Below, one piece after another: positions 6,128 to 64,000 of a stretch of 64,000 bases of DNA. The DNA is from Eledone cirrhosa (Eukaryota), in the NCBI GenBank assembly GCA_964016885.1, contig OZ024740.1, positions 197,408,001 through 197,472,000 on the forward strand. The letters are read 5' to 3'. Under the pieces are notes generated by a model. The model made no database searches, had not been told where the DNA came from, and saw nothing but the letters and a program-made list of their open reading frames with translations. Both the position numbers and the translations under genes were made by a program. Position 1 is the stretch's first letter. Every line of letters starts with the position of its first letter.

Positions 6128-6202
<75 letters not shown>

Positions 6203-21874: not shown

Positions 21875-21921
21875 AAGTATGTATGTATGTATGTATGTAT
21901 GTATGTATGTATGTATGTATG

Positions 21922-22345
21922 TATCTCTTTCTCTTAATTTCGAGTATATTTTTTTTGACCGGCCACCTTCCTGGTGGCAAGGTTGTAAAAGAAAAGAAAT
22001 TGTCATCCCTTGAATCGCAAGAATGTTTTGCAAAGTTTGAAGGTGCCAGCTATCGCAGCCATTTGTAGACTATGAATTAAGGCGCTGCGCTTTTTGTCCG
22101 CACATGCAAGTTCAGTCATACTTTGGTCCAAGCGGGTTGGTATATATCGCGTAGCACCAATAATGATGGGTATAAAGCTAAAGGTGTATCTTGGATACTG
22201 GATTTGTAAACTCCTCATCAATGGTCCGTAGATGTCCTCCTTCTCCTGTATTTTTCTGACAACGTTTACATCAAGTGGGCAGCTGATCTCCACAACAGAA
22301 CACGTTTTCAATGTGTGGTCCCAAACAACAATATCAGGCCGGTTG
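21922..22345 (-). mobile_element. R4-type family A, 5'-truncated
   Basis: Same extent as 4005-4429. Confidence 0.85.
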
Positions 22346-22409
22346 TATGTATGTATGTATGTATGTATGTATGTATGTATGTATGTATGTATGTATGTAT
22401 GTATGTATG

Positions 22410-30200: not shown

Positions 30201-31150
30201 TACGGCAACCTTGACAGTGAAATCTCACTTAGGATTAGGAAAGCAAGTGGTGCTTTCGGAAAGCTAGAAAGGCGACTCTGGGGTCAGCGAGACATATGCA
30301 GGAGGACAAAGGTAAAGGTGTACAGGGCATGTGTACTCTCTTGTCTTCTTTATGCCTGCGAGACCTGGGTCACATATCGACACCACCTTAAGCAATTGGA
30401 GCGTTTCCATCAGATGTGTCTCAGACGGATCCATGGCGTTCACTGGAGGGACCACATCAGTGATGTCGAGATTTTGGAAAGCTCTATGTGTGACAGTATA
30501 GAAGCTCTTGTGCTTAAGCAACGACTCCGTTGGAGTGGTCACCTTGCCAGGATGAAGGATTCTAGAATACCAAAACAACTCTTCTATGGAGAGTTGGTTA
30601 AAGGAAAACGACCGCCACATAAACCAAAAAAGAGGTATAAGGATTCCTTGAAAGCCTCTCTGAAAGACGCTAACATCTCTGCTGTTACATGGGAAAATAT
30701 TGCTGCTGATCGTAATAAATGGAGAAAGACTGTATATGAGGGAAAAGTTGCCTTTGAGGCATCTCGAATCGCACACGAGAAAGTAAAGCGGGATGTGAGG
30801 AAGGGCATTTCTGTTGCACTTCCAGACGGCGAGGGTCCTCCTATGGTGCTGACATGCAGCGTCTGTGCGAGACTCTGCCTAAGCAAAGCTGGACTCGAAA
30901 GTCATCTTCGCAGTCATAAAGTAAGACCAGTGGTTGACTACCAGGCTGCTGTTGGAGATGCTACTCATCATGCTTGCCAAACATGTGGTAGAGAATGTAA
31001 ATCAGCAGGAGGGCTCAAGCGACATGCAAAAGTACACGAACTCCAACCACAGCCGACTATTCCCAGTGAATGTTTTGGTTGCCGACTCTGTGCAAGACAT
31101 TGTAGATCATTGGCTGGGCTAAAAAGCCACATTTGATCGCAGCACTGTTA
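27240..31150 (+). mobile_element. RTE-clade LINE (APE-RT-C2H2 fingers), recently inactivated; its 3' terminus is probably displaced to ~41575-41612
   Basis: CWNVRTL, LSETRL, GDFNARVG, DLTKAFDTV, GVKQG, YADD, YLGS and three C-terminal Zn fingers. Lesions: TAG at 28484 within GA(E)CWTDHRL, 1-nt frameshifts near 29092 and 30040, and probably CGA>TGA at 31134. Confidence 0.95.
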
Positions 31151-31514
31151 GTTGTTATCGTGTGTGTGTGTGTAGATATGCTTATGTACGTGCGTGTGTG
31201 TGTATATATATAGGAATATGTATATTATTATTGTCGTTATTATTATTATTGCTATTATTATTATTATTATTATTATTATTGCTATTATTATTATTATTAT
31301 TGAATGCCATGGTTGACGGAGGCTCGGCTCTGTAAGGTATAGTAATTTTTAACCGTTAAAACAATTGTAAATTGTTTAAAACTTGAACCAAATTGTTGAT
31401 AAAGACACCCTCCTCCTCGTGAGAGGGGTCTTTCTGTCCGTTATTTGGCCCTTCGGGGTTAAATAACCAGTTATTGGGGTTTTGTACCCAAAATTTCATT
31501 TTAAACAAAAAAAC

Positions 31515-33614
31515 ATGGCTACCAAAAAGAAATTTCATACGTCACTCCCACTCATTCCGTCTTCTTCTTCCTCAATCATCACTACAGCAGAGAGAAGATT
31601 GTCTCTCTCCCTCCCTTCTTTAAATGTGTCTCTCTCCCTCCCTTCTCTTTCGCAAGTGACGAAAGAAAAGAAAAGTCTCGTGCAAAGCGTGCAAGGTTTC
31701 TCCACGACGACGACGACAGCGACGAAACAGGTGTGCGGGAAATACGAAAACCCAGTTCATTCGTCTGACGTCAGGAATAATAGCAGTAGCAGCCGTAATA
31801 ACAACAGCAACAGTGACAATGAAAACAACAGTAGCAGCCGCAACAGCATCACCAGCAGCATAAACAACAATAGCATTAGCAGCAGCAACACCAACAACAA
31901 CAACCACAGCAACAGCGGCGGAGGCAGTAGTCGTAGTACCTGCAGCAACAACAAAAGTACCAGCAGCTCTGACGACAACAACAACAGCAGAGAAAAACCA
32001 ATCTCATTTGCAGGTATTGCGAAAAACTTGGAAACAATCCTCATAACAAATGAGGAATTAGAGGAAGCGAAGAAGATGGTGACAAAGAACGGACACCGAG
32101 CAATCTGCAAGGCAGCGAAACATTTTTTCGAAACCCAAGAGCACTGTACGGTCACGTACCGTACAGTAAGTACAAAATCCCGTAGGGTGGAAAGAGCCAC
32201 AGAGGCCCAAATACAAAAAGCCTTGGGGTCTGTGTGGCAGCGGAAAACGCACATCACCCGAGGCAAAAAATATGCCACCGTAGACGTACTTTTTGCCACA
32301 CCCCAGGAGGCAAAGGCCCAATCAGTAGTGACCCTAAGGAGCGAGGAAATGGTGTTGGTGCCCTCCTACTGTGGGCAAAAAATTGTGAGGGTCAAACTGA
32401 CCCACGTCCCCCCCGGAATGACCCCTTCTTGGCTGGCCGCGTCTGTCCTCGTCGGAATCGAGGACAAAACAACTGTACTGCAAGTACAGAAAAAAGTAAG
32501 AGAAGATTGGGTCGGCTCCTCCATTGAGATGCTAATCCAAACCAACCAGGAGTGCATCGAAGCTATCCCGGATGTGATAGACTTCGATAACGGCACTCAA
32601 CTGCCCATAAGTGTTGAGGGCAAACGCCCGAAATGCTTTCGCTGTGGATCGAAGACTCACCTCAGGGCCTTCTGCAACGAGAAGACCCTGAGAAAGGAGA
32701 AAACCCCCCTCCTTCCGAATCCGGCTCCACGGCTACCAGCAACAGGACAAGCGGCAACCAGGAACGATAGGCCCGTGGCACCCATACCCACTCCACGGAA
32801 ATCAAAAACAGCAGCAGCAGTGGAAATACTAACAACAACAACAGCAATACCAAATGCAGCTGCAACAGAGACTCCAGTGCAAACATCACCAACAACAACA
32901 AGTGAAAGAGTGGAGTTGGTACCCCTCCCCGACCTCACAGAATCAGACATGGAGTGTGAGGTGGGAGAGAGATGGCAAAAGGTCGTAAGAAGGCACAAAC
33001 GCAGAAGCAGCGCATCGTCGCCTTTGAAAAGGGAGGAAAGAAATGAGAAAAGGGTAAAGTCTACTGCAAAGAGACCCACAGCAGCAACAACACCAACACC
33101 ATCACCACCCACACTAGCGCCACCATCACCACCGGCGACAACCCCACCGCCAACAACACCTTCAACACCACCACCACAAGCACCAACATCGCAAACACAA
33201 CAACAAAACACACACACCCAGCAACAACGACAAGAAAATAGTAGAACCACACCCCACCCCCAGAAAAACAAATGCACGGCAATAAATACACACAACAAGA
33301 AACTAATGACTTACATAATTGAACACACAGACATTTCACAACAGGACTACATAATACCAGCACCAATCAAAACGCCAACTAACATAAGACTGCTAAAAAT
33401 AGCACAGAAACAATACACAAACATTAAAACGAAATTCCCCAACGCAGTTGGTGATTTCAGGGACCTAGGAGGAACCATCAATCGAAGAGTATACTCAGAC
33501 ATTCTCTTAGAAGAGCCGACGACCAGCCGAAGGGACGATTCAACGGTCCCTTCACCAGACGATCAAGTGAAAAGGGATGTAAAAACCATCCCTCCTCTAC
33601 CAAAAGTACGGTAA
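31515..33614 (+). CDS. Tx1-type ORF1 (gag-like, CCHC zinc knuckle), 699 aa from the first ATG
   Basis: CFRCGSKTHLRAFC knuckle; Asn/Ser-rich N-terminus; Pro/Thr-rich C-terminus; homologous to the ORF1s at 56.7 and 62.4 kb. Confidence 0.88.
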   Translation: MATKKKFHTSLPLIPSSSSSIITTAERRLSLSLPSLNVSLSLPSLSQVTKEKKSLVQSVQGFSTTTTTATKQVCGKYENPVHSSDVRNNSSSSRNNNSNSDNENNSSSRNSITSSINNNSISSSNTNNNNHSNSGGGSSRSTCSNNKSTSSSDDNNNSREKPISFAGIAKNLETILITNEELEEAKKMVTKNGHRAICKAAKHFFETQEHCTVTYRTVSTKSRRVERATEAQIQKALGSVWQRKTHITRGKKYATVDVLFATPQEAKAQSVVTLRSEEMVLVPSYCGQKIVRVKLTHVPPGMTPSWLAASVLVGIEDKTTVLQVQKKVREDWVGSSIEMLIQTNQECIEAIPDVIDFDNGTQLPISVEGKRPKCFRCGSKTHLRAFCNEKTLRKEKTPLLPNPAPRLPATGQAATRNDRPVAPIPTPRKSKTAAAVEILTTTTAIPNAAATETPVQTSPTTTSERVELVPLPDLTESDMECEVGERWQKVVRRHKRRSSASSPLKREERNEKRVKSTAKRPTAATTPTPSPPTLAPPSPPATTPPPTTPSTPPPQAPTSQTQQQNTHTQQQRQENSRTTPHPQKNKCTAINTHNKKLMTYIIEHTDISQQDYIIPAPIKTPTNIRLLKIAQKQYTNIKTKFPNAVGDFRDLGGTINRRVYSDILLEEPTTSRRDDSTVPSPDDQVKRDVKTIPPLPKVR

Positions 33615-33649
33615 GTGGTCTTTCCCATCTTTTCCACTCTATTTTAAAC

Positions 33650-36600
33650 ATGACCTCACTCAGAATAGGCAGCATAAATGCGCGTGGCTTGGGGTCGTCA
33701 TGGAAGCAGGGTCACCTGCTCAACGACCTCAGGTCACTAAACATAGATGTAGTGGCCATCAGCGAGACCAGAATCTCCGAAGCACGGGCCTTCGCACCGA
33801 TCTTCGGCGGCTACGATGTGTACGCATCTCCCAGCCGTCCTGGATCGGGTGGAGGAGTTGCTGTGCTTTTTCGGAGAGGTTTGGATCTCGCCATACGGGC
33901 CATCTTCCTGGACCCAGAGGGTAAGCTGGTGGTGCTGGACGTGACCAGCGGAGACGGGCAAGCTTTCAGGCTAGTGGCCGTCTATGCCCCGACAGGAGCA
34001 GGGCGGTCTGATTTCTTCCGGCGTCTGGAGACCTTTCTTGGAACGTCCCGCTCTTTAGTGTTAGTGGGCGACTGGAACGGGATCTTAGATGCACGCTGGG
34101 ACTGTGTGGGATTAGCGGATAGGGGTGGAGGGTGCAAGAGCCTCACCAACCTGCTCAGGCGTTTTGAACTGTCTGACAGGTACCGATTGGATTTCCCGAA
34201 TGTGCCAATGTGGACTTGGACAAACCGCATAGGGTCATCCAGATCATATCTAGATAGAGTATTTTGTAGGGAAATAGATAGGTCTAGTATAGGCTGTCCA
34301 CAATTCAAGATAGTCAGCTACACGGACCACAAATTCGTGATCTGTGTGCTTGACTTAGATAGGCTTCATAGACGAGGACCCGGCTACTGGAAGCTAAACG
34401 CGTCCTTACCAGCGCGCAAGGCCTACAGAGACCGGATTAGCGAACTAGTTAAGCGGGCGTTGACGGGGGCCATCGTCAACAACAAGTGGTGGTTTGCTCT
34501 GAAAAGAGCGATTAGAATAGAATCGATTAGGTTTAGCAAGGCTTTAGCAATAGAGAAAAATAGAGCAGAGGGAGAACTAGTTAGAAAATTAGACGAGGCG
34601 CTTAGCAAAGGCATTGCGACCGACGTGCTTGCGGCGAAATTAGCCCTTGACCAATTCTTCAATGCAAAGCACGAAGGCTGCGTTGTCAGAGCTAGGGTGC
34701 GTGCTCTCAGACACGAGGGGACGAAAGCCGTTCAATGGGCCCGAGTGGCGGAGGCGCGTCGTGGCAACAAAGCCACGATCCGGTCTTTGGTGGACCACGA
34801 CGGGCGCATGCTACTCGATCCCGGGCAAATGTGTGAAGCTTTTCAGCGACACTTCGCTCAGCTGTTCGGGGGCAGCGGGGGGCCGGGTAGAGGGATGGAC
34901 TTTAGTGTCTACCTCGACGGACTGCCGCGGCTCTCGGCCACTGAGGCGAAGTGTTGCGAAAAGCCGATAACAGCCGCTGAAGTACGGGAGGCAATGACTG
35001 GCTGCACAAGGGGTAAATCGCCTGGTTTGGATGGTCTGCCCTATGAACTTTACGTACAGATGCCAGACTTGTTCGGAGGCCTCTTGGCGGACGTCTACTG
35101 CAACTGGCAACAGAACGGGAGAATTCCCAGTTCTGTGAGCCGAGGAGCGGTGGCACTGCTGAGAAAGGATCCGAACAAGGGGGATAACATAGAAAATTTC
35201 CGGCCCATAACTCTGCTAAACACAGAGTTTAAGATTTTGGCCAAGGTGCTAGCAAAGAGGTTGGCGCTTGTCGTTGGTGGTCTGGTGGGAGAGGCGCAGA
35301 CATGCGCCATTCCCGACAGATCCATCCACGACAACCTCCACCTCATGCGATACATCGTAGAGAGGGTAGCTAGGGAACCTGGCACGGGTGGGTCCTTGAT
35401 CAATTTAGATCAGTCGAAAGCTTTCGATAGGGTCGACCATCGTTACCTAGCGGCAGTCCTGAGGGCGGCTGGCTTTGGGCCCGTCTTCAGAGGCTGGATC
35501 GCTGCCATGCACAGCGACATCTGCTCTGTGGTGAGAGTGAACGGTCACCTGTCGGAACCGTTCAACATCATGCGCTCGGTCCGCCAAGGATGTCCCCTCT
35601 CGTCCCTCTTGTACGTATTGACTCTCGAGCCATTACTGCACAAACTGGAGACGTTGAGGGGGGTCCCGCGCGAACTAGGATGCGGAAGATCCGTGTCAGC
35701 ATATGCGGACGATGTCACCGTAGTGGTGTCGAACGCCAAACACATCGAGGCGATCGGCACTACACTAAGAGAATACGAAGCGGTGACAGGAGCAATGATC
35801 AACCCGGAAAAGTCAGTGGGCCTGCAGCTCGGCACCTGGAGAGGCAGGTCCATGCCGTCCAACAGCGTCGTCGGGCGCTGGACGGACGGACCGGTTAAAT
35901 TGCTAGGGGTCTGGTTCGGTCCGGACCTCCAGACGGACAAAAACTGGGACGAGGTGACGAGCAGGGTGGCTTCTCTCACCCAGAAATGGGCGGAGAGGAA
36001 GCTATCCCTGAAAGGTCGAGCGGAGGTGGCTAACGCGTACATCGCGTCTGTCATCTGCTACCGCCTAACCGTCGTACCTTGTCCTAAGCCTCGCCTGACT
36101 GCGCTGGAGCGTTTGCTCTTTCGCTTTTTGTGGAAGGGACGTGCTCCGATGGTCAGGCGGTCCATCTGTTGTCAACACCCGCTACGTGGAGGGCTGGGCA
36201 TGCCGTGGCTGATGATGCGCAGGCACGCGCTCAGGCTACGACATCTCCACCTCTTCCTCGACGGTGATCAGGTGGGGTCGCCGTTTGCTAGACGCGTTTT
36301 TCCCCAGCTCGTTTCCTTGACGGAGCTGCAGTCCTGGGTCAAGCGAAGACCGAGAGGGAGCGCCTGGAGACTGGAATGTCTTCAGGCGCTCACAGCCCTC
36401 GACCAATCGGGCAATGTGATCGGTGGAAACTCCACCTCGGCGTTCTATAGAGGATTAGTGGAGGGGAAGAGCGACGACGTACTTGGGGAAACTCTAGGCG
36501 TCGACGAAAATCAACTAGCCAATCTCTTCGGAAGAACTTTCGGGCCAGGGCCTATGGACAACTTCCAGAAATCTCTGGCCTGGCAGTGCTACCGAGGAGC

Positions 36601-37069
36601 CTTGCCAGTTCGGGATAAACTCTACAGGCATGGAGGTGCCGTCAGCCGGGCATGTCCGAGATGCGCGCAGGGCGACGAAACCGTCCTGCACGCACTCGTC
36701 CAGTGTCCGAAAATTGCTGACTTGTGGGTTTATGTCGAACACCTGCTGTCGCGTTTAGGACGGATCCAGCTATCATCTGAGTCTATCGTGAGGATTGCCC
36801 CGCCCTCCTCCTTTAGCCGGGAAGGGCAGGCAGTTTTTATCTGTCTGGTGGCCATGGCGAAAGAGATAGTATGGTGGACACGTTTGAAAGGGCTGAAGAC
36901 GAGCACTTACCTCTTCGGTGATGCTCTGATTGACTTTTTCAAATTTCATTTGAAAAGGAAAATCAGAGTAGAGAAGGAAGTGCTCTCTTCCCAGCATTTT
37001 GTTGAAAGATGGGTGAGAGAAGCAAGAATGGCCCGAGTGAATGGGCCGACTCTGAGTATATATCTGTAA
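33650..37069 (+). CDS. Tx1/L1-type ORF2: AP endonuclease, reverse transcriptase, CCHC (1139 aa)
   Basis: SINARGL, SETR, GDWN, SYLDR, TDH, PGYWKLN, SPGLDGLP, DQSKAFD, RQGCPLS, YADD, CPRC..ETVLHALVQC. Confidence 0.97.
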   Translation: MTSLRIGSINARGLGSSWKQGHLLNDLRSLNIDVVAISETRISEARAFAPIFGGYDVYASPSRPGSGGGVAVLFRRGLDLAIRAIFLDPEGKLVVLDVTSGDGQAFRLVAVYAPTGAGRSDFFRRLETFLGTSRSLVLVGDWNGILDARWDCVGLADRGGGCKSLTNLLRRFELSDRYRLDFPNVPMWTWTNRIGSSRSYLDRVFCREIDRSSIGCPQFKIVSYTDHKFVICVLDLDRLHRRGPGYWKLNASLPARKAYRDRISELVKRALTGAIVNNKWWFALKRAIRIESIRFSKALAIEKNRAEGELVRKLDEALSKGIATDVLAAKLALDQFFNAKHEGCVVRARVRALRHEGTKAVQWARVAEARRGNKATIRSLVDHDGRMLLDPGQMCEAFQRHFAQLFGGSGGPGRGMDFSVYLDGLPRLSATEAKCCEKPITAAEVREAMTGCTRGKSPGLDGLPYELYVQMPDLFGGLLADVYCNWQQNGRIPSSVSRGAVALLRKDPNKGDNIENFRPITLLNTEFKILAKVLAKRLALVVGGLVGEAQTCAIPDRSIHDNLHLMRYIVERVAREPGTGGSLINLDQSKAFDRVDHRYLAAVLRAAGFGPVFRGWIAAMHSDICSVVRVNGHLSEPFNIMRSVRQGCPLSSLLYVLTLEPLLHKLETLRGVPRELGCGRSVSAYADDVTVVVSNAKHIEAIGTTLREYEAVTGAMINPEKSVGLQLGTWRGRSMPSNSVVGRWTDGPVKLLGVWFGPDLQTDKNWDEVTSRVASLTQKWAERKLSLKGRAEVANAYIASVICYRLTVVPCPKPRLTALERLLFRFLWKGRAPMVRRSICCQHPLRGGLGMPWLMMRRHALRLRHLHLFLDGDQVGSPFARRVFPQLVSLTELQSWVKRRPRGSAWRLECLQALTALDQSGNVIGGNSTSAFYRGLVEGKSDDVLGETLGVDENQLANLFGRTFGPGPMDNFQKSLAWQCYRGALPVRDKLYRHGGAVSRACPRCAQGDETVLHALVQCPKIADLWVYVEHLLSRLGRIQLSSESIVRIAPPSSFSREGQAVFICLVAMAKEIVWWTRLKGLKTSTYLFGDALIDFFKFHLKRKIRVEKEVLSSQHFVERWVREARMARVNGPTLSIYL

Positions 37070-37329
37070 ACTAAAGGTGGAAAACTGGGAGAGGGCACTT
37101 GCCTTGGTGGTCAGGGTCATTGTGGCTTTTTACTGGGCTTTCTCCACAAATGTCCCTCCGAAGTCTCCCCCCTATTGGGGAATTTTTCATTGTTATTTTC
37201 ATTGTTATTTTTGTTACATCCTCTGTTTTTGTTTTTTTACACGCAGAAATGCCCATTTGTACCGTCCTGCATTGTCCTGCACTGTCCTTAATGTCTACTT
37301 TATGTAAACCCTTGTGGTTAATAAAGAAA

Positions 37330-37372
<43 letters not shown>

Positions 37373-37502: not shown

Positions 37503-40500
37503 GTTATTGTTATTCCTTGAATCTCAGTCATTGATGTTGGTTAACTGGAAAGTCCGTTGGATTGAATATCAAGCCACTACCTGCAGCCTCAGATATTCAG
37601 GACGTATCGGAGGGTTCTTGCCGTTCCAAGCAAGCATGCCTTTTGAAGCGTTCCAAAAAGCGTGAAGGGGCCGATTTTCTTTAACCATCCCTGGAAACCT
37701 TTGGAGATAGTCCCCAGTGCGCCTATGACAATCGGGATCACTTTGACTTCATGGCAGTTCCAAATCCTTTTCACCTCCCACTTTAGGTCCTGGTATCGGT
37801 TAATTTTCTCCCTCTCCTTCTCTTGCACTCTCGTGTCGAACGGGCAGGCCACATCCACAATCAGGCACGATCTTTTTTCTTTGTCCACAACCACCAGGTC
37901 AGGTCTATTGTGTTCCAGTTTTTTGTCCGTCTGTATCCTAAAATCCCACAGCACCTTCACCTGACTGTTCTCCATCACCGCCTCTGGCCTATGCTCATAC
38001 CATTTCTCAGAATGTGGTAGATTGTTTACTTTGCACAGGTGCCAGTGGATCACCCTGCCCATCACATCGTGTCTCCAGCCCTTATAGTGGGTCTGGGCTA
38101 GGTGTTTACACTCGGACACAATGTGAGCCACAGTCTCCTCTCTCTCTCCACAGATCCTGCACAGTGGGCTAGCCTCCTCCTTGTAGATATGGTGCTTCAA
38201 CCACTTCGTTTTGAGGGCCTGCTCCTGCGCAGCCATTAGCATTCCTTCTGTAGCCTTTTTGAGGTCTCCTCTTCTCAACCAGTTCCATGTCTGTGGATCT
38301 CTAAATTCAGTTTTCTCAAAGAAGGTACTATGAAGGGATTTTCCCTTAAGGCTGCTCTTCCTCCTTGATGTTATTTCCTCCTTGGGTATCCCCTGGCCTA
38401 CTGTCCCCTCCTTCAGTACAGCTCTGAGCATTGGCTCCTTACTATAGGTCACGTATTTGTATAGGTTGTTTTTCTCCATCTGAACACAGTCCTCTATGCT
38501 GATAAGACCTCTTCCACCCTCAGATCTCCTTAGGTAGAGTCTATCGACATCACTCCTCTTGTGGAACATGTTGTAGATAGTCAATAGCTTCCTAGTCTTC
38601 CTATCCATTTCTTTTTGTTCAGCAACATTCCATCTCAGAATTCCCGCACTGTACCTAATAATAGACACAGCTCGGGAATTTACTGCGCTTATGGCATTTC
38701 TGCTGTTCAGATGTGACTTCAATACGCTCCTTACTCTCCGAATGTATTCAGTTCTTAACAATTCCTTCATTTTTTTGTTCTTTATGCCATCAGCCTCCAG
38801 AACGCCCAAATACTTGTATCCTTCCTCAGAGTCAATTTCCTTTATCATCTCACCTGTTGGTATCTGGATCCCGTTACTTCTGCTCAACCTACCCCTCCTC
38901 ATCACAATGACTCCACATTTACCAATACCAAACTGCATACATATATCACTGCTGAAAATACGGACAGTGTCAACAAGCACATCCAACTCCTTCTCACTTT
39001 TCCCGAAGAGCTTAAGATCGTCCATGAAGAGGAGGTGATTGATGGTAAGCTCTCCCCTTCCCAACTTGTATCCTGCTCTCACTTTTCGCAGCATAATGGT
39101 CAAGGGCATCAGGGCAAGGACAAACAACAGAGGGGACAGGCTATCTCCCTGGAAGATACCTCTCTTGATCTTCACGCTTCCCAAGGATACTCCAGTTGAT
39201 GTCAACTCTGTCTCCCAGGACCCCATACTCCTGCCCAGCAACTGTCTGATGTTATCTGCCACCCTGAAGATCTCCAGGCTTTTGGTGATCCAGGAATGAG
39301 GCACCATGTCAAATGCCTTTCTGTAGTCTATCCATCCCATGGCAAGATCAGTGTGTCTCCTCCTGCAATTCCCCATTACCATCTTATCAATAAGCAACTG
39401 GTCCTTTGTACCACGTGACTTCTTTCGGCATCCTTTCTGTTCGTCCGGCAACAAGTTGTTTGTGTGGAGGTGATGGTAGATTTCCTCAGACACAATGCTC
39501 GTCAACAGTTTCCACATTACGGGCAGACATGTGATAGGTCTATAGTTGGTAACATCATTACCCTTGATTCGGTCTTTCATTATCAGAACTGTGGTACCTT
39601 TTGTCAACCACTCTGGCACCTCACCCGACACCAAACAGTCATTGAACATGGCCGTCAGCTTCGGGTGGAGGGATGTTAAATGTTTAATCCAATACCCCTG
39701 CACACCATCTGGGCCTGGTGATTTCCAGTTGGTTAGTTTTTTGGCTTGCCCCTTAAGAGTTTCAACTGTGATACTCAAATCAGTCTGTTGCTGTGCCTGC
39801 TCACCGATCTCCCTCTGTACTGTCTCAATCCACCCTGCCTGGGCATTGTGTCTAACACCCTGCTCCCATATTCCTCTCCAGAATGTTTTAGCTTGTTCCG
39901 CCCCAGGGATCAAGTCGGTGCCTCTTTCTTTCCCCTCAAGCTGTCCAAACAGCATCTTCTGGTTGTTGTCGAACATGCGGTTCTGTTTATACTGACTGAC
40001 TCTGTTCTCGTATCGCCTGATTTTGGCACTCTTTGCTACAATGCGTTGCTTCAATTCCTCTATGATAATGTTTAGCTTTTTACTCCTAGTTTTGTATTTT
40101 ATTTCCAGTCTATTTTTAGTGCCTATGTTTTTTAGTGTCCCATTCAGTAGTGACTCAAGCTTTCCTATGTCATTTCTCATTTCCCCGATTTGCCCACTCA
40201 GTCGCTTCTTCCACCACGGCTCTGCTCTTTCTTGTCTGTTGTTTCCTCTCGCTTTTATACCAAGTAGTTTCCTCACCGTATTTGCTGTTGCTTTGAGGAT
40301 ATTGTTGCACTGGTGAAGACTCCTCGCCTCAAGGTATGGGATGACTTTGTTTACCTTAGCTGTTATTTCTTTTAACTTTTTCCTGTCTACAAATCTTAGG
40401 TTCATAGGTCTCCCACTATCATTGTTCAACTCATCTACCACTAAATTTAGGATGTCAACCGAATCTTGTCCTAGCCCGTCAGCATTCATCTCCTCAGTGG

Positions 40501-41355
40501 CCGTATCTCTGTTCCAGGTATTATTTATCTCAGTATTCAGATCATTGTCTGCTTCGGGTGGTTCCTCCGCTCTCAGGACCTCCTCACCTTCATTTCCCGC
40601 CGGCTCGCTTGTCTGGCATACTACACCCGCCATCTCCAAGCCATTCTCTCTGCTCAGTTCCTCCAGTTCCAGCTCGCTTATCCACCCATTAGTTCTTATT
40701 ACCCGAGCCTGCCCGGCCAATTTTTGTTCATCTAATTTAAATAAACCAATCTCGTTCCAGATGTTATGCATCCGTCTCCTGTAGCCCCTCTCCTTGGGGT
40801 TACTTTTCAGGTAGCATTGCATAACAGTTCTATTCAATTCTTTCGTCCAGTTGGTTCTGGCCCCTTTCCTTCTTCTTCTTCCTCCAACATCAGCAGTATT
40901 TCGTTGACAGTCAGGTTCCTGCTGCTGAGCCAGGGGGCACCTGTTGGGTGAGAGTCTGTCACATGACGTTCTAGTCTCCATTTCACCGTTATTCGAACTG
41001 TTTATGTTCGATATTTAAACACTCTTATCGAGGATTGGCGAATGTATGTTTACATAGCCATCTGTGGATCCGCCATCCCACTTGGCCCTTGTGTGGCATT
41101 ATCACCACGCTGTATACGGACACACATAAACAAACAAACACACGGGCAGAAAGGGCCCCAAAAATGAATAAGCATAAGTTTCATTGTAATGTAGTATTCG
41201 AATGTCTGACTTAGTTTTTGTTTTTTAAGTTTTACTTTTTCCCCCCTCTTCTCTGTCCGTCCGCCTGCTTCTCTCTTCATTCTTATTTTCTTTACGTTTT
41301 TGGGGTTTCTTTTTTTGTTTTTGTTTTTCTCTGTTTTTCTCGTTTTTTACTGTTG
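37503..41355 (-). mobile_element. full-length R4/Dong-type retrotransposon in (TAA)n
   Basis: Single intact ORF; 3' end abuts TAA repeats; flanked by the direct repeat. Confidence 0.9.
37589..40981 (-). CDS. R4/Dong ORF: N-terminal domain, RT, CCHC, PD-(D/E)xK restriction-like endonuclease (1130 aa)
   Basis: WKSPGPDG, YRPITCL, DYRKAFD, FQGDSLSP, FMDD, YLG, CRIC..HIVSEC, RHD, RPDLVV..DVAC. Confidence 0.97.
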   Translation of the reverse strand: METRTSCDRLSPNRCPLAQQQEPDCQRNTADVGGRRRRKGARTNWTKELNRTVMQCYLKSNPKERGYRRRMHNIWNEIGLFKLDEQKLAGQARVIRTNGWISELELEELSRENGLEMAGVVCQTSEPAGNEGEEVLRAEEPPEADNDLNTEINNTWNRDTATEEMNADGLGQDSVDILNLVVDELNNDSGRPMNLRFVDRKKLKEITAKVNKVIPYLEARSLHQCNNILKATANTVRKLLGIKARGNNRQERAEPWWKKRLSGQIGEMRNDIGKLESLLNGTLKNIGTKNRLEIKYKTRSKKLNIIIEELKQRIVAKSAKIRRYENRVSQYKQNRMFDNNQKMLFGQLEGKERGTDLIPGAEQAKTFWRGIWEQGVRHNAQAGWIETVQREIGEQAQQQTDLSITVETLKGQAKKLTNWKSPGPDGVQGYWIKHLTSLHPKLTAMFNDCLVSGEVPEWLTKGTTVLIMKDRIKGNDVTNYRPITCLPVMWKLLTSIVSEEIYHHLHTNNLLPDEQKGCRKKSRGTKDQLLIDKMVMGNCRRRHTDLAMGWIDYRKAFDMVPHSWITKSLEIFRVADNIRQLLGRSMGSWETELTSTGVSLGSVKIKRGIFQGDSLSPLLFVLALMPLTIMLRKVRAGYKLGRGELTINHLLFMDDLKLFGKSEKELDVLVDTVRIFSSDICMQFGIGKCGVIVMRRGRLSRSNGIQIPTGEMIKEIDSEEGYKYLGVLEADGIKNKKMKELLRTEYIRRVRSVLKSHLNSRNAISAVNSRAVSIIRYSAGILRWNVAEQKEMDRKTRKLLTIYNMFHKRSDVDRLYLRRSEGGRGLISIEDCVQMEKNNLYKYVTYSKEPMLRAVLKEGTVGQGIPKEEITSRRKSSLKGKSLHSTFFEKTEFRDPQTWNWLRRGDLKKATEGMLMAAQEQALKTKWLKHHIYKEEASPLCRICGEREETVAHIVSECKHLAQTHYKGWRHDVMGRVIHWHLCKVNNLPHSEKWYEHRPEAVMENSQVKVLWDFRIQTDKKLEHNRPDLVVVDKEKRSCLIVDVACPFDTRVQEKEREKINRYQDLKWEVKRIWNCHEVKVIPIVIGALGTISKGFQGWLKKIGPFTLFGTLQKACLLGTARTLRYVLNI

Positions 41356-42282: not shown

Positions 42283-43413
42283 CGATTCCTATCACAGAGA
42301 CAATTTAGATACCAGCAACGTAATTTTATGTATGTATATCTGTATGTGTTTTTGTGAATGTATGTGCAGATATGAATGCCATTTCAAGTGCGAATCTATA
42401 TATTTATATGTTATATGAGTTATATGAGTTATATGAGTTATATGTGCACATTTAAATATGTTTCTGTATCTATGCGTGTGTATATGCAGTTATTACATGC
42501 TGAATTTTTGGAATGGTATGTTGTCTGGATTGAAGTTAAATATCTACTTCCCTATTTACAATGCCGGTTAGAATTTTTCGGGCTTTAACGTCAATAACTC
42601 AGATTTCATCAAGCGTCCAGTCAAGTAATCCAATTGTTGGTGTCAGCACAGGTACAGCAAGCACATCGTGGGCCATTGATTTATTGCACGCAGAGAGTTT
42701 CAAAGCCATGTTTTTCTTATCCGGGTGTTATATTCCATAGTAACTCGTTCTTTGTCACAAATTCCATAATTGGTTATTTTTCTATCTATCCCTAAGTGTC
42801 TGTAGCAGTCCTCGTTAGATACCGGCGAATATATTGCTAGACAGGGTAACAGTTTACCCCATTTTAAATTCATATAGGAACATTTATCCTGACCAAATTT
42901 CATTCCTATGTCTTTCGAAAATGAAACCAGGTCAAGGTTTTTTTTCATATTCTTGACTTAGAGTTTCAGGCCATCCACAAAGACGCCGTGTATTAGGTTA
43001 TTGTTTCTGGCCTCCTGGGAGCTAAATACGTATCCTTCATACTTCCTCGGCATAAAGGACATGGGTTTACTGACAGTATAAATATCATTACAAAGAGACT
43101 CTCATTGAAATATACTCCATACGATGATTATTTTATTAGTGACAATATAGTCCTTCCTCGTATTTAACTTCAGTATAGTGGCCCATGACGAAGATAACAT
43201 TTTTATGGCTCTTGTGGTATTTGGGACTTTCGCAAGTCGAAGGGCTTCTAGCATCAAAGAGTGGAGAAGATTCGAAGGCTTTCTTGCATTCCATCGAAAC
43301 TGTAACAAAGTTCCTTCTGTGTTGTCTCATCTCTGACATCACAGATTTGTCAATTAGGAGTTGCTCACCCCAGCCAACTGCTTTCTTCCCAGCTGCTTGC
43401 TCATCTGTGATGA

Positions 43414-43565
43414 TACAGAGGGTACTTGCAGAAACATGACAACAACATACATAGGTGAGACAGCTCGTAGCATAGGTGAAAGGATAGACCAACACTGGGG
43501 GGAACTAAAAGGACGAAAAAACGGGTCAGTACTATACGAACATGCTAGACAACAACATGACGGTA
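43414..43565 (+). pseudogene. Penelope-like GIY-YIG endonuclease fragment
   Basis: TYIGETARSIGERIDQHWGELKGRKNGSVLYEHARQQH (YIGET..R...R..(E/Q)H...S.L..H....H pattern). Confidence 0.7.
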
Positions 43566-53019: not shown

Positions 53020-54100
53020 GAAATCGTGCGAACCGATGAGTGGTGAAGCCTGAACAAGGGTGAGATCGGAATTAACATCAGGCTCACTTCTCTACTCAAC
53101 GGTGTTAAAGATTTTGGCAAATAATGCTCGTTGAGATATTGGGACTTGTAGTCAGTAGTTTAGACACACAAACTCTTGTAATCTTCGGCAGACATATCTG
53201 CATTAAATCTATTTTCAATAGATCTATCTTCAACTATCGTCACATAACGTGTTCGGGGATAAAGCTGGCTTCGGTTGAGATCAGGGAAACGCCTTTTCCA
53301 TTTTGTCCACCGGAGCCGCCGGGCGGCCAGCACGTGGGCCATCATTTGCTCATAATAGTGAGAGATGGGGAGAGCGGGAGAGACGGAGGCAGTGACAGCG
53401 GCAGTTTGGTTCTTTTGTGTTCGGACTTTGTGTATATGTGTCATGGACACATACTCATGTATGTGACGGAAACAATACCAAAGTATTTACTCATCAAATC
53501 TAATCAATTAATGCCAGTCATTACATAGCGGATATCGTAAAAGCAGTTCGTTTTGAGCCCTTCTTCAATGGCTGGATCACGACAATGTATTGAGGAATTT
53601 GTTCCGTAGTCCAATTAAACGGCTAGCTATCGGAATCATTTCTCCTCGTGAAATCGGTCGCCAAGGATGCTCTTTCTAATTTCTTCTGCACTTCTTAGCA
53701 GTCGAGCTATTCATGTTAAGTTTGGAGCCGTGTCTGAACTGGGAGATGACGTCACTGTTATGGTGTTGAGCACCAATAGTTATGTAGTTGACATAATTTT
53801 GGAGGCGTAGCAATACATACATTAATCGTGACAAGTCAGGAGACCTGCAGCACGACACCTGGCGAGGCATTTCTATGCGGTACACGAGTCTTGTTTAGAC
53901 CAAACATCCTGGTGGATAAAAATTGTGAAGTGTTCTATAGCAGAGTGGTCGGTCTCAATCAGAAGTGGGCTGAAAGGATGTTGTCCCGGTATAATCGGGC
54001 AGAGTTAGCTGACGTTTCTATCGCTTCGTCATGTCATATCTCATGAGACATCTAACAAGATTGAAGGGTATGTTCTTTTACTTCTTGTCGAAGGTACGAA
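53020..54100 (+). pseudogene. highly degenerate Tx1 ORF2 fragment
   Basis: Patchy DNA similarity to 35170-36130 (TTAAAGATTTTGGC; GGCTGGATC; CACCTGGCGAGGCA; CAGAAGTGGGCTGAAAGG). Confidence 0.6.
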
Positions 54101-54144
54101 TTTTATATACCATGAGGTCAATTTTCTGCGGACTCCCACTACAG

Positions 54145-54350
54145 GGTAAGTACCTCTCCGAGGTCACTCCTCTCTACGTCACCGATGTTACCAAGGGAAA
54201 AGCAAAGGCTGATACAGCTGAGAGAACTGGAGCAACATGAAATAAAGTGTCTTGCTTAAGAACACAACGCAAAGCCCAGTCTGAGATCGAACTCACAACC
54301 TCACGATTGCAAGCCCGATGCTCTAACCACTAAGCCACGTGCCTTCACAC
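54145..54350 (-). mobile_element. tRNA-derived SINE (third family)
   Basis: Minus strand: TGGCTTAGTGG A-box, GAGTTCGATC B-box, then TGTGTTCTTAAGCAAGACACTTTA. Confidence 0.8.
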
Positions 54351-56345: not shown

Positions 56346-56473
56346 TGGTAGAAAAACCTCCCTCAAATCACACCATATGGCTTTAACTTGATGCATTCGA
56401 TAAAATAATCTAGATACACAGTCGTTATCAGAACGCATTTGTGTATAGATTTGCATGATTAGAGCATATCTGT

Positions 56474-59400
56474 CTGACGTGTGGAACATCGCCGGTAAGC
56501 TTTTTTGTTAATTTCTATGCAAAAAACTGAACTAATTGTTTGAAAAAACATAACACTTTGTAGATTAACCCCCAAGCTGAATTGTCAGCTGGGTGGTAAT
56601 CTCATTTTTCGCCCCTGTAGGGGCGAACATTTTATTTTAAAATTTTGTTTTAAAATATCAAATTTTACAAACTAAATAACTTGAGCAACACAAGAACGCT
56701 GGAGAACGTTAATATAGAAAAGAGAGAGAAAGAGGCAGATATTAACGTTATATGTGCTTCTGCTACTATGGACGTCGCCATAGATACAAGTGTCAACAAA
56801 GTGAAAAATATATTAACACTTGAAAATTTTAAAATTTCTACCGTCGAAGCGGAGAAAAATAACAATAACACACAGGAAAACACAGGAATTAAACTCATTA
56901 GCATACATACACATGAAAAAGACATCAACAACTCTACTGATACATATACACATAATGTTTCACCTCGACAAGGAACTGAGATTTCCAACAACGATAACAA
57001 CAACAACAACACCACACAAAAAAAGAAAATGTCTTTCGCTGAAACAGTGAACAAAAAACAAGATTTTATAAATCTTGATATCTTCAACGCAAGAGATATG
57101 CTCCAGCAAGGGAGAAAATTTGTAACTTTCGAAGAAAGAGGTGGGTTTAGAATTAACTCACCCCTTGAAATAAAGGAAGACACAATCCGCAGATCAGTCA
57201 CCTTTAGGACTGTACCAAATTCCACAAGAAAGCCGACATTTGTTAACCAAGCAGATATAGAAGATACTTTCAAGGAAATTCTAGCAAATGTCGATTTTCT
57301 CCAGCGAGGAAAACAGTACGGAAGTGTTTCCGTACTGTTTAAAAGCGAGGCACTCGCCCAAAAAAACTCTGTGACACCAATGGTGTCAAAAGCATACACC
57401 TTTTCCCCTACATACATGGGAAAAAGGACACAAAAAATAAAATTAAAAACATACCTCCAAACATTAACATCTGGTGGATCTTGGCTGGCTTCGTAGAGCC
57501 AGAAACTGATATGACACTTTCGATACGAAAATCTATTCGACAAAGGTGGGCGGGCACAGATTTGGAGATTCTGTTGCAAATGAAACCGGAGAGAATCTCC
57601 AAAATACCCGAAAGAGTCGTTATCGATAATAACAACAAAATAAACATTTCGCTAGAAGGACGAAAATTTCATTGCTTTCGCTGTGGTAGCACAGCACACC
57701 TAAAAGCCTCTTGTCCACAAACACACAACAACAACATCATAAAAAAAACGCTATTACCAACACCAACGCCAAAACAACCACCACCACCACAAGTACAACG
57801 ACAGACGAAACGAGCAACCACACCAAAACAAACAGACACTCAACCAACAACAACAGAAAAAACAGAGACAACACCCCTGAAGAACACAGCCCCACTCCAT
57901 CCCACTCCATCAAACACTACCACAAACACACACACCGAAACACCACCACCACACAACATACCCTTACCCCACACACCTGACGATGATTATTCATCGACGG
58001 ATGAAGCTGCTTCTCCTTTAAGTGAAGAAGAGGGAGAACCGCAGAAATCTAAAAAACAAAAAAGAGACACCACAAAACCCCCAAAACTCCAATCACCAAC
58101 ACCAACACACAACCACAGACACAAACAACAACACAAATAACACCACAGTCAAACATCCCCCTATCAGCAAAACCAGCACCAACACCACCCCAAACACAAG
58201 CACCCACCATAAAAAGAAAACTCCCGGACGAACAACAAACTAAAACAACACAACAAAAACACAAACAACAATACGCATACATCAACACAAACAACAAGGG
58301 TTTGATGGAGGTCATCTCCCAAAACCCCAAGGTGGAGACGGAGGGCAAAACTTTCGTCAAGGCAGAATCGTCTCCACACCTTAAACTTATAAGGGTTTCT
58401 ATGGAAACCTATAATGACCTAAAAAATAAATTTTCACAGGACGTGGGCAACCCCTGCCACAAACCCATCAACCGCGTCCTGTTAAAATGTTTCCCCACCC
58501 CACCCAACACCCCATCCAGCACCCAAATGGAGATTGAACAACCCGATCTCCAGGAAACGAAAAGGTAAGTGCACCTTTCGTCTTTTTTCTCCAACTTTTC
58601 TTCACCAACATGGCTAGTTTACGAGTTGGAACCGTGAATGTGCGTGGCCTAGGGATGCCCTGGAAACAGGGCCAACTTTTAAACGACCTTAGGTCATACA
58701 GTATGGATGTGATAGCCATCACCGAGTCCAGGATCCACAACAGGCAGCAACTAACCCCCATCTTCGACGACTTTGAGATCTACGCATCTCTCTGTCAGCC
58801 AGGAGGTGGAGTGGCTGTCATGTTTCGGAAGAACCTGGATTTCGGAGTACAGCAAGTACATTTGGACCCGGAGGGTAGACTGGTAGTCCTAGACGTGAAC
58901 AGTATTGGAGGGGGAGCCTTCAGACTGGTGGCCGTTTATGCCCCGACCGGGCAATCGCAATCACGGCCAGACTTTTTTAAGCGTCTAGAGTCTTTTCTGG
59001 GAACGTTTCGCTCCTTACTTTTAGTGGGAGACTGGAATGGTATCCTAGATGCACGATGGGACTATGTGGGAGCATGTCCCAGTAGAGCGGGGTGCAACAG
59101 CCCCAAAACTTTAATCGGCCAATTCCAACTGGCCGATAGGTATCGACTGGATTTCCCGACTGCACCACAGGCGACGTGGGTAAACCGCAGTGGGACATCT
59201 AGATCGTATTTAGATAGGTTCTTCATTAGAGAAAGGGACAAGGAGATGTTAAGCTGTCCACGAATGCACATGGTTGCCTATTCAAATCACAAGTTAGTTG
59301 TCTGCTTAGTCAACCGTGATAGAATACATAGACAGGGTCCCGGATACTGGAAGCTGAACGTGTCGTTGCCGGCACGTAAAGCTTACAGTGAACGGATAAG

Positions 59401-62160
59401 TAGACTAGTCAAGCAAAAGTTAACGGGAGCCATCGTCAACAATAGATGGTGGTACTCTCTCAAGAAAGCAATTAGAATAGAATCGATAGGGTATAGCAGT
59501 GAGTTAGTCTTAGAGAAAAACAGAATAGAAAGAGAACTAGTAGCCAAAGTAGAGGAGGCACTTAGAAGTGGAAATGCGGCTAGAGTGTTAGCGTGGAGAA
59601 CGGCACTGGACCAGTTCTTCGATGCGAAACACGAAGGCTGCGTGCTCAGAAGCAAAACACGTGCTCTAGCAAACAAAGGAGCGAAAGCTGTCAGCTGGGC
59701 CCGATTTGCGGAGGCAAAAAGTGGCAACAAGTCCACGATTCTGTCTTTGAAAGACCAAAACGGACGAGTGCTACTTGACCCCAAGCAAATGTGCGCGGCC
59801 TTTCAGCGGACACTGAGATACGGGACGCTCTGGGCCGCTGCGGGAAACGCAAGTCACCCGGTCTAGATGGTTTACCCTACGAATTTTACATAGGCATGCC
59901 GGACTTGTGCTCTGGCGTCCTTGAAGTCGGCTACTGCAATTGGCAGCAGAACGAAAGAATTTCTAGTTCTGCAGTTAAGGGCGTAGTAACGCTGATCAGG
60001 AAAGACGAGAACAAGGGGGACGAAATTAACAATTTCAGGCTCATAACTCTGATCAACACATAGTTAAAGATTTTGGCCAAGGTGCTAGCGACGAGGTTGG
60101 CGCTTGTCGTCGAGAACCTGGTAGGGAAAGCGCAAACATGTGCAATCCCGACCAGGTCCATACACGACAACCTCCACCTCATGCGATACATCATAGAGAG
60201 GGTGGGTAGTAAACCCAGCTTCGGTTGGGCTCTGATCAACTTGGATCAATCTAAGGCATTCGATAGGGTCGACCATCGATACTTGGAAGCGGTTCTCAAG
60301 GCGGCCGGTTTCGGTCCCGTGTTCAGAGGTTGGATCGAGGCGATGCACACCAGCATATGCTCGAGGGTCAAGGTGAACGGCTACTTATCGGAGCCGTTCG
60401 CAATCACGCGTTCCATTCGACAGGGGTGCCCTCTCTCCTCCATTCTGTATGTATTGACTCTAGAGCCACTACTGCGGAATTTGGAGCTGTTGCAGGGCAT
60501 CCCTCTAGAACCGGGACTGCGCAAAGCGGCGTCGGCTTATGCTGACGACGTGACGGTAATGGTGTCGAGCACCTCGGAAATCGGGGTGATCGGCAACTTA
60601 CTGAAAGAATACGAAACGCTGACGGGAGCAAAACTAAACCGGGACAAGTCTGTCGGTTTGCAACTCGGTACGTGGAGAGGCAAATCGATGACGTCCGACA
60701 GCGTCGTTGGACGCTGGACGGACGGAGCGGTAAAATTGCTCGGGGTCTGGTTTGGTCCAGACCTCCAGGTGGATAAAAACTGGAACGAGGTCACGGCCAA
60801 GGTGTTTGCACTCACCCAGAAGTGGGCAGAGTGCAAACTGTCCTTGAAAGGTCGAGCGGTAGTGGCGAACACTTTCATAGCGTCCGTCATCTACTACCGC
60901 TTGACTGTCGTGCCTTGTCCTCGTGAACACCTCGCCAAGATGGAACGCATGCTCTTCCAGTTTCTGTGGAAGAAGCAGGCTCCGCTGGTGAGGAGATCCG
61001 TCTTCTGTCAGCACTCTTCCAACGGAGGGCTGGGAATGCAGAGGCTGATGATGCGCAAACATGCGCTGAGGCTGCGGCATCTCCAGGTATTTCTCACCGA
61101 CCCCCAACCGGTGCGGGCACCGTTTGTGAGACAGGCTTTCCCACAGCTCGTCTCGCTGACGGAGCTGCAGTCCTGGGTGAAGAAAAGACCGAAAACGATG
61201 GGCGCCTGGCACATTGAATGCGCTCAGGCACTCACAGTCCTCTGGCAAGCGGGCGCAGCAATCAGTGGAAACTCCACTTCGACATTCTATAGAGGGATTG
61301 TACGTTACAAGGGCGACGACATGCTCGGAGAGACTCTGGGCGTCGAAGACGATGAGCTCACCAGTCTGTTTGGTAGGACTTTCCGCCCGGGACCTATGGA
61401 CAACTTCCAGAGGTCCCTGGCCTGGCAGTGCTACCGAGGAGCTCTACCGGTTCGTGACAAGATCTACAGGCACGGAAGCCCCGGCAGGGATCCTTACAAG
61501 AGGACGTGTCCAAGATGCGCGCAGGACATTGAAACAGTCCTGCACGCAATTGTAGACTGCCCGGGCGTAACCGACCTGCGGAACTATGCAGAACAACTGC
61601 TGTCGCGTATGGGACAAATCCAGTTGACTGCCGAGTCCATAGTAAGGATCAAACCGCCAGCCTCTTTCAAAAACGAAAGAGAGGCGGTTTTCCTCTGTAC
61701 AGTGGCTATGGTGAAAGAAGTTATATGGTGGACGAGGTTGATAGGACTGAGGACAGATGCCTTTCTCTCCGGACAACAATTGATTCCCTTCTTTAAGTAT
61801 CACTTTAGAAGAAGAATCAGGGTGGAAGGAGAGGCACTGCACCCCAGTAAATTTACTGAAAGGTGGGTGAATGAAGCGAAAATGGCCCGAGTGATTGGGC
61901 CTTCTCTGTTTATAAGCCTGTAGGTTGAGGAAGAGAGCAAAAGGAAGAAAGGAGCACTTGCCCAACACGCTCCTGGAGTTGAGGGTTGTTCTATCGACGG
62001 GGTATTAAACAACCCATTTGTGGCGCCTCCCTCCTATTGGGGATTTCGATTGTTGAAATTGTTTGTTTTTATATTTTTTACACGACTGAATGTAAAATCC
62101 CCGGCATGTCTTTGTATTGTCCCCTTTTCTTGTTGCGCACTTGTGGCTAATAAAGAAATC
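56474..62160 (+). mobile_element. full-length Tx1-type element, family 2, disrupted
   Basis: ORF1 56.7-58.57 kb frameshifted (CFRCGSTAHLKASC); ORF2 58610-61923 with a ~100-bp deletion/frameshift near 59810 and TAG at 60061; YADD; ends AATAAAGAAATC. Confidence 0.92.
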
Positions 62161-62183
62161 TAGCTATCTCTCTCTCTCTCTAT

Positions 62184-64000
62184 CAGACGTGTGTAACTTC
62201 GCGGAGAACTTTCCGTTAATTTATGTAAGAAAAAAACGTGAGTTTTTAGTTAAATTTTATATCATCGTGTAACTTGACCCCCCGTCTGAACCTTCAGGTG
62301 GTGGGTCAACTCATTTTCGCACCTATTTCTCCATCGAATCTTGGAAAAAATATTGTAAAATTTTGATTACGTTATGAACACTGCGTCCAACGATAATGGT
62401 GGTGGAGAGGCGGTAAGACTATAAAGCTCGCAGTCAACATCGTCTTCTTCTCTTTCCTCATTAGATACTATAGAGATGGAAAGACGAAATGAAAATGCAA
62501 AAACAAATTCATATCCAAACAACACAAATGACCCCAAACAGTTCAATGACAACAAAAATAACAGCAACACCAATAATGATGATAAAAACAACAATGATAA
62601 CAACAAAGAAAAAAAGAAAGACAACACCAATAACACCAGCATCAAAGACAACAACAACACCAAGGAAAATACGAATAATTTCAACATCGGTGACAACAAG
62701 AATAACAACAACAATAACAACAATAATGACAACACCACCAACACGGATAATTCCACAAAGAAACCAAAATCTCCTTTGCACAGACAGTTCAAAAAAAGGA
62801 GGACTGATATATCTCGACATAACAAATGCCGAACAACTTTTAAAGGACGCTAGGAGATATGTCACTTTCGATAAAAATGGTGCTTTCAGCATCAATTCTC
62901 CGGTAGAAATTCGCAAGGAAACTGCTCTCAAAACGATAGTTTTTAGGACAGTTTCCAATTCTACCCGAAAACCAGTCCAATTGTCACGGAAAGGAATTGA
63001 ACTGGTTTTCAAAAATTCAATGAATGATATTGCATTCATTCAAAGAAGCAAACTTTTTGGGAGTATTTCGGTACTCATGAAGGATCAATTGACGGCCCAA
63101 AATTACTCTGTGTCGCCAATTGTATCCAACCTGTACACCCTTTTCCCTACATACATGGGAAAAAGGACACAAAAGATCAAAATTACGAGTGTCACACCAA
63201 AGGTGAACATATGGTGGATACTGTGCGGCTTCATCAATTTTGATGAAGACAGAATACTGTCAGTAGGAAAGTCCCCCAGAGATGTATTCAATGGGACTAG
63301 CATTGAAGTTCTGGTGCAAATGAGCCCAGAGCGAATAGCTATGATCCCACAACGTGTACTCCTGGACGGACTCACCTACATAAACTTTTCGGTTGAGAGT
63401 AGGCGGCCTTCATGTTACCATTGCTTTAGCAGGGGTCACCTGAGGGCTTCCTGTCCTAAATTAATGAATACAAAAAAGGCTCTTCTGCCGACACCCATCA
63501 AAACAACACAACCACCAACACCACCACAACAACAACAACACCTACACACAAAAATAACCACAACAAACACAGTCCCACCCAACCCCACTCCACCTAAAAC
63601 CACTGCAAAATCACATACAGACACAACAGCTCCCCAAAACATACCCCTCACCAATCACACAGACGATACAACAGATGAGGCTATCTCGCCATCACCCAGT
63701 GAAGACGAGGGAGAACCCCATCGCTCGAAAAGAAAGAAAAGACATCACAAAAGCAAAAAACCAGCAAACACTACCACAAACATACAACCACCAACACAAA
63801 CAACAAAAACATCACAAACAAAACCCCCACCTCCTGAAAACAAAATACCTACAACAAAACGAAAGCACACACAAGAACTACAGACAAAAACAAACACAAC
63901 ACAAGAAAATTACACTTACACTTACATAAACACTGAAAACAAAACACTAATGGAGACCATCACGAACGACCCTTTCGCCCACTCTATTAAAAATAACAAA
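62184..64000 (+). mobile_element. third Tx1-type element (5' UTR and disrupted ORF1), cut by the window edge
   Basis: Starts CAGACGTGTG..AAC.TCGC like 56474; FPTYMGKRTQKIKI and CYHCFSRGHLRASC. Confidence 0.85.

Follow-up and report, generated by a model that had tools for sequence, protein, structure and literature searches.

In bicistronic LINEs the excess of ORF1p over ORF2p is usually ascribed to inefficient reinitiation, and L1 RNA shows cis preference. SART1 and mammalian L1 make ORF2 by termination-reinitiation, the ORF2 start overlapping or shortly following the ORF1 stop as it does in the elements described here, and the passage concerned mentions no donor at the stop (PMC5972666). 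In Ty1/Copia elements of Arabidopsis a conserved donor yields a spliced GAG-only subgenomic RNA (shGAG), U1 also protects the full-length RNA, and the full-length RNA of EVD stays unspliced (PMC5580714). Introns are present in the antisense RNA of TART and have been noted in transcripts of L1, Tad, Penelope and Athena (PMC1636488). For human L1 cis preference has been invoked, and the splices described in the accessible sections (SpIREs) lie within the 5'UTR or lead from the 5'UTR into ORF1 and damage the element, none of them starting from the ORF1 stop (PMC5860796). L1-Tx1 families are listed as active in Octopus vulgaris (PMC13282606, Table 1), and the main text of this octopus repeat annotation contains neither 'splic' nor 'intron'. 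Within the scope of our literature search, which took in the main text of mainly open-access papers, no LINE was described as having a donor at its ORF1 stop.

The window analysed here (the whole stretch of DNA, 64 kb) is AT-rich, eukaryotic and crowded with retroelement remains. It contains three related L1-group LINEs, copies A, B and C, with the following parts.

about 31300-37330, plus strand: copy A, both ORFs open
31515..33614, plus strand: ORF1 of copy A, intact, 699 aa from the ATG
33650..37069, plus strand: ORF2 of copy A, intact, 1139 aa, with Exo_endo_phos, RVT_1 and zf-RVT
about 56470-62160, plus strand: copy B, decayed, holding the donor at 58565
56654..58568, plus strand: ORF1 of copy B, split over three frames, with a CCHC-type knuckle in the middle piece
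58610..61923, plus strand: ORF2 of copy B, encoding endonuclease, RT and zf-RVT, its frame disrupted at 60061 and in the vicinity of 59760-59870
61924..62160, plus strand: 3'UTR of copy B, with AATAAA at 62149 and without AG where copy A has an acceptor candidate
62474..64000, plus strand: ORF1 of copy C, which the window end cuts before the ORF1/ORF2 junction

Assignment to the L1 group rests on an ORF2 with N-terminal AP-type endonuclease, RT and a C-terminal cysteine-rich domain, a separate upstream ORF1, a poly(A) signal, a simple-repeat tail and the absence of LTRs, the last judged from reading of the element ends. ORF2 of copy A matches PF03372, PF00078 and PF13966 in Pfam, and copy B has the same domains in pieces. 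The nearest solved structure to ORF2 of copy A is human LINE-1 ORF2p (best PDB match, E 8e-52), the ESM Atlas matches are unnamed RT/endonuclease clusters only, and the Rfam search gave no matches. The two ORFs, the CCHC knuckle in ORF1, the endonuclease, RT and zf-RVT in ORF2, and AATAAA followed by a simple-repeat tail are all features of L1/Tx1-type non-LTR retrotransposons, and the elements may belong to the Tx1 clade. Between copies A and B, identity is 61-68% for ORF2 and about 30-36% for the core of ORF1. From the L1-group elements described in the literature searched they differ by a consensus donor that is fixed where ORF1 stops, and in a sister branch such a donor is also found after the ORF2 stop.

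The donor at the end of ORF1, hereafter D1, and its surroundings in copies A and B are as follows, with a slash at the predicted cut.

58562..58570, plus strand: D1 of copy B, AAG/GTAAGT, the G of GT at 58565 and the ORF1 stop TAA (58566-58568) inside it
58571..58609, plus strand: inter-ORF spacer of copy B, pyrimidine-rich and AG-free, with A at -3 of the ORF2 ATG
58610..58618, plus strand: ORF2 start and Ser3 codon of copy B, the first AG past the donor at 58616-58617 being a candidate short acceptor
33608..33663, plus strand: D1-to-AG span of copy A, with ACG/GTAAGT at 33611, the stop at 33612-33614, the spacer and the ORF2 ATG at 33650

The original prediction read 58565-58617 as a 53-nt intron at the ORF1/ORF2 junction, equal in length and phase to 33611-33663. 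By consensus and pyrimidine counts, on which all splice sites were judged, its description of the site was accurate: GT...AG ends with an exact consensus donor are present, the donor overlaps the ORF1 stop of copy B, 25 of the 30 nt past it are pyrimidines (24/30 in copy A), and both spans measure 53 nt with the AG in frame, that of copy B having phase 2 at both ends. The donor itself is hardly accidental. The window shows no enrichment of GGTAAGT (5 observed vs 7.75 expected). The heptamer holds only 5 of the 2205 TAA triplets, and the probability of finding GG before and GT after a TAA is 0.003-0.004 per element; because it is that small for each, the presence of D1 at both visible ORF1 stops is unlikely to be due to chance.

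The matching length and phase, which had been put forward as the main comparative support for function, carry little weight. The phase match is nearly automatic, since with the stop TAA within G/GTAAGT the donor has to be in phase 2, and a phase-2 AG is supplied by any AGN codon for Ser or Arg at the start of ORF2. When the ORF2 codons were resampled in 200,000 rounds and the spacers left unchanged, both AGs fell in frame with a frequency of 0.68, also at equal length with 0.12, and with both being YAG as well with 0.016. The first AGs are moreover not homologous, that of copy A (33662-33663) lying in the Arg5 codon and that of copy B in the Ser3 codon, and the donor-to-ATG distance is 39 nt in copy A vs 45 nt in copy B. 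In copy B the pyrimidine tract stops about 12 nt upstream of the AG. The ORF2 ATG and the A at -3 are kept in both copies, although they lie within the 53-nt span.

Scanning of genome contigs yielded 45 loci; 38 of these belong to tandem arrays in G002, and a further one, in G001, is decayed. Both are bacterial genome bins, and they carry long head-to-tail arrays of intact animal-type LINEs (L081-L117 and L124 in G002, L125 in G001); because of these intact arrays the loci are regarded as animal DNA inside bacterial bins, likely as host DNA contamination. In a tree of 33 rows these elements and those of the window form one clade (100/99) with two branches, and a protein named as from Argonauta hians groups with copy B, which makes an octopod the probable host. 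ORF2 of the G002 elements is 40-44% identical to that of the window elements. All 65 ORF1 ends of the main G002 family, collected with a 2-mismatch pattern, continue as a stop followed by G/GTAAGT, these junctions being tandem near-copies with 9 distinct sequences and not 65 independent events. At the loci read, D1 of the sister branch stands 2 nt past the ORF1 stop and 11-13 nt upstream of the ORF2 ATG, the pyrimidine tract is absent, and 15-17 of the 30 nt past the donor are pyrimidines. In L125 the donor lies 5 nt past the stop. Because ORF1 ends before the cut, the sister-branch donor could not fuse the ORFs and could only shorten the message.

Conservation is incomplete within the clade. 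L113, a separate family of the same sister branch, is without D1 and has a TAATG stop-start overlap in its place, and among four decayed G001 copies that cover the D1 region one keeps the donor, two have it altered and one has lost it. The 28 distant loci examined include several near-duplicates, and in none of the 21 with a mechanically called ORF1 end was G/GTRAG found within 10 nt of it. The distant L014 has A/GTAAGT 7 nt past the ORF1 stop. On the tree, two gains of D1 are as easy as one gain and one loss. Members of the window's own branch with further junctions were not found in viral contigs, in plasmids or among 200 relatives of G002; the genome contigs held only the sister branch and distant elements, and the metagenome contigs (80 of 85 kept, best-segment identity 22-41%) likewise held none. 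Two features of the ORF borders were seen in passing. In the distant decayed element at L026:7780-7817 the stop is followed by a pyrimidine spacer and then an ATG, much as in copy B, with C replacing the donor G at +1. Stop-start overlaps occur at L089:5986-6006 (TGATG), L125:5785-5805 (ATGA) and L113:2950-2963 (TAATG), a second in-frame stop beyond the first ORF1 stop overlapping the ORF2 ATG in L089 and L125, and they may be traces of an ancestral overlap.

The feature shared by the two branches is thus the donor at the ORF1 end. The part of the original prediction that concerned this donor stands, and its conservation extends far past two copies and into the sister branch. The fusing arrangement is not conserved: relatives place the donor past the ORF1 stop, where no fusion is possible, and a donor upstream of that stop with an in-frame acceptor was not found in them. 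The original prediction had itself named relatives without the in-frame AG as evidence against it, and these relatives are of that kind. The site is a genuine, conserved donor at the end of ORF1 and was probably misread as a 53-nt fusing intron.

Further candidate splice sites lie in the untranslated regions of the elements.

37202..37246, plus strand: 3'UTR acceptor candidate of copy A, a T-rich tract with CAG at 37244-37246, 177 nt past the ORF2 stop and upstream of AATAAA at 37320
56492..56620, plus strand: candidate 5'UTR intron of copy B, from CCG/GTAAGC at 56495 to a pyrimidine-rich TAG at 56620

A second donor, D2, was present past the ORF2 stop in 61/61 G002 copies. In an alignment of nine 3'UTRs (53-91% identical, 222/682 positions invariant) D2 is invariant save for A/G at +3, with freely variable flanks. 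In the donor consensus, +3 is the one position where A and G are both allowed. GTRAGT is found 15-41 nt past the ORF2 stop in L089:9486, L113:6460-6603, L125:9066 and L109:6192, the last of which contains the ORF2 stop itself. The donor of L113 lies 41 nt past the stop and is followed 144 nt further by a long pyrimidine tract and TAG. Copies A and B have no clear second donor. T-rich runs also lie 3' of the UTR donors, and pyrimidine-led YAG sites are found in the 3'UTRs of A, L089, L081, L101, L105, L109, L113 and L125. With AGs led by such tracts downstream, GTRAGT past the ORF2 stop is a candidate for a retained 3'UTR intron in a LINE. AG is the dinucleotide most often invariant in the aligned 3'UTRs (10/30), but the acceptor candidate at +264 in the relatives is not invariant in the 9-way alignment and no single acceptor can be named. 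Copy B aligns at the acceptor candidate of copy A without having the AG, and its 3'UTR contains no other tract-led YAG. Donor and acceptor pairs in the 5'UTR occur in copy B, L101:202-377 and L109:151-340, with a T-rich run past the donor; the pair of copy B has no recognisable counterpart in A or C. An acceptor-like site 154-160 nt upstream of the ORF2 ATG in relatives was rejected because a conserved motif of the ORF1 protein, found in database proteins too, brings it about as a side effect.

Our leading proposal for the use of D1, which we hold tentatively and at somewhat less than even confidence, is that a splice from D1 to a predicted 3'UTR acceptor removes ORF2, yielding a message that would encode ORF1p alone. 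Binding of U1 to D1, the splice and its landing site are all predicted here from the sequence, from which the motif, its position and its pattern of conservation can be read directly. The spliced RNA would supply excess ORF1p, whereas the unspliced RNA would be the template for retrotransposition and would give ORF2p from its own ATG by termination-reinitiation over the 35-41 nt spacer, which by analogy with SART1 and L1 is the likely route to ORF2p. The pyrimidine run would then be a U-rich element adjoining the donor and not the tract of a 53-nt intron. Lacking ORF2, the spliced RNA would not copy itself in cis, and for this reason the donor would stay in the genome. We favour removal of ORF2 because it is the sole splicing outcome possible in both branches, because it accounts for the good context of the ORF2 ATG, and because it would be evolutionarily stable, an ORF2-less RNA not being copied back under cis preference. 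Read from the sequence, the frame obtained by joining D1 of copy A to 37246 stops ahead of AATAAA. No spliced retrocopies were found among the 9 loci compared, and all 65 G002 ORF1 ends run into the donor.

Several observations count against the removal of ORF2 by splicing. The 3'UTR acceptor is absent from the decayed copy B, the acceptor of the relatives is not pinned down, and A and B are without a clear D2. D1 is lost or altered in 3 of the 4 decayed G001 copies and missing from L113 inside the clade, and the history of its gain is ambiguous. Compared with synonymous shuffles, a depletion of acceptor-like sites in ORF2 was not significant in the 4 elements studied (P 0.09-0.79), and neither donors nor poly(A) signals were significantly depleted in ORF2.

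A Copia-like subgenomic mRNA would call for a conserved donor where the structural gene ends, and these elements have one. The elements resemble EVD in having this U1-type donor near the structural-gene end and in needing more structural than catalytic protein, but EVD belongs to the LTR elements and has a single Gag-Pol frame, its intron is short and polyadenylation premature, splicing has been shown for it where here it is predicted, and the present element is a bicistronic LINE (PMC5580714). Unlike the short intron of EVD, the splice predicted here would pass over about 3.6 kb and land at the 3' end of the element itself. Human L1 (SpIREs) is similar in having donors and acceptors within LINE RNA, functional there and predicted here (PMC5860796). 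A donor that stays at the ORF1 stop while the elements themselves are only 41% alike would suggest a second, splicing-based route to ORF1p excess, similar to that of Ty1/Copia. High-copy elements with perfect donors could, in addition, splice into adjacent host genes.

An intron that fuses the two ORFs, either alone or as a minor product beside the long splice, is an unlikely alternative for the window's own branch. D1 and the first AG would remove 53 nt, among them both the ORF1 stop and the start codon of ORF2, and a natural ORF1p-ORF2p polyprotein of about 1830 aa would then be produced by splicing. The first AG of both A and B is a YAG, in frame and 53 nt away, and the joint codon chance of 0.016 is modest, after-the-fact support for it. 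The spacers of A and B are AG-free and 80-83% pyrimidine, as compared with 15-17 of 30 in the sister branch, and in copy A the last ORF1 residues would restore a similar hydrophobic-then-basic pattern at the lost ORF2 start. Introns of 53-66 nt are described for TART antisense RNA (PMC1636488). Against this, the AGs are by-products of non-homologous codons with the chance frequencies given above (0.68 in frame, 0.12 at equal length), the ORF2 ATG is conserved, and fusion is impossible in 65/65 G002 copies and in L125, where the ORF1 stop precedes the donor. Cis preference should also have seeded fused intronless copies, since a spliced RNA that makes RT would itself be copied in cis, but the spacer is still present in A as well as in B. 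No protein joining the ORF1 core to the ORF2 start was found, in searches that were weak, among 625 long candidates or 46 ORF2 matches; one of 150 ORF1 matches carries both parts, as a 176-aa internal chimera. A comparison of contig sets X4, X1, X5 and X8 with 56400-64000 spoke neither for nor against splicing at the donor: none of the 15 joints listed, out of 596, starts at 58564, and one record of X4, a set of unstated kind, spans 58305-58674 unskipped.

It is also conceivable, if rather doubtful, that the donors are seldom spliced and act as landing sites for U1 snRNP, which would keep the full-length RNA from being polyadenylated too early or would govern whether it is retained in the nucleus or exported. 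The donors are better conserved than any acceptor, the unspliced RNA is indispensable to a retrotransposon, and in the G002 3'UTRs an internal AATAAA follows D2 at a distance of about 430 nt; the same role of U1 is described at the EVD donor (PMC5580714). In the seven regions counted, though, AATAAA and ATTAAA are wholly absent from ORF2 downstream of D1, and with ORF2 free of poly(A) hexamers D1 would have little nearby to suppress. The tract-led YAG sites in the UTRs also speak against a role confined to U1 binding.

Equally doubtful is a motif that plays no part in splicing, the inter-ORF spacer being an ordinary one in which the motif serves as stop-codon context, signals reinitiation or has merely been inherited as a remnant. 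In every close relative ORF2 is in the -1 frame, and stop-start overlaps occur as in the termination-reinitiation of SART1 and L1; L113 manages without D1; and in L026, where the stop is followed by a pyrimidine spacer and an ATG, the donor G is replaced by C. Such a function does not explain that the TAA of the sister-branch motif is not the ORF1 stop, that the same hexamer recurs past the ORF2 stop with an exchange of A and G at +3 only, or that G/GTRAG within 10 nt occurs in 0/21 distant loci with a called ORF1 end. The fold of the junction is unremarkable (z -0.45 to 0.16).

A more inclusive scheme, which we consider quite improbable, would run the expression of the whole clade through the spliceosome, the 5'UTR donor together with those at the ORF1 stop and past the ORF2 stop giving an ORF1-only mRNA beside the unspliced template, and a branch-specific alternative acceptor at 53 nt adding an ORF1p-ORF2p polyprotein. 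If true, this would be a spliceosomal Gag/Gag-Pol switch in a non-LTR element. A -1 frameshift, suggested by an ORF2 in the -1 frame that is open upstream, was rejected, as no shared slippery heptamer was seen by eye and there is no special fold.

Other elements in the window were recorded as well. The minus strand at 37589-41014 carries an intact single-ORF RT element of 1141 aa without a match to AP endonuclease, presumably of R2/R4-type (Dong-like), with decayed relatives at about 4100-6800, 14900-22350 and 42700-43500. On the plus strand, 27539-31136 is a broken endonuclease-RT element of another family with C2H2 zinc-finger matches at its end. A strongly decayed RT fragment at 53040-54150 is of the same family as the L1-group copies, and the GGTAAGT directly past it, at 54145, has no relation to an ORF1 end.

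Copy A is embedded in an (ATT)n repeat. Copies B and C lie head-to-tail (56470-64000) with similar 5' ends and a short (TC)n tail alone between them, a layout that echoes the tandem arrays in G002. The 3'UTRs of A and B have kept a C-run/TATT/G-run motif (37140-37200 and 62020-62050) and the final 25 nt preceding the tail, and are otherwise diverged; it is possible that the motif and these last 25 nt are recognition signals for the RT.
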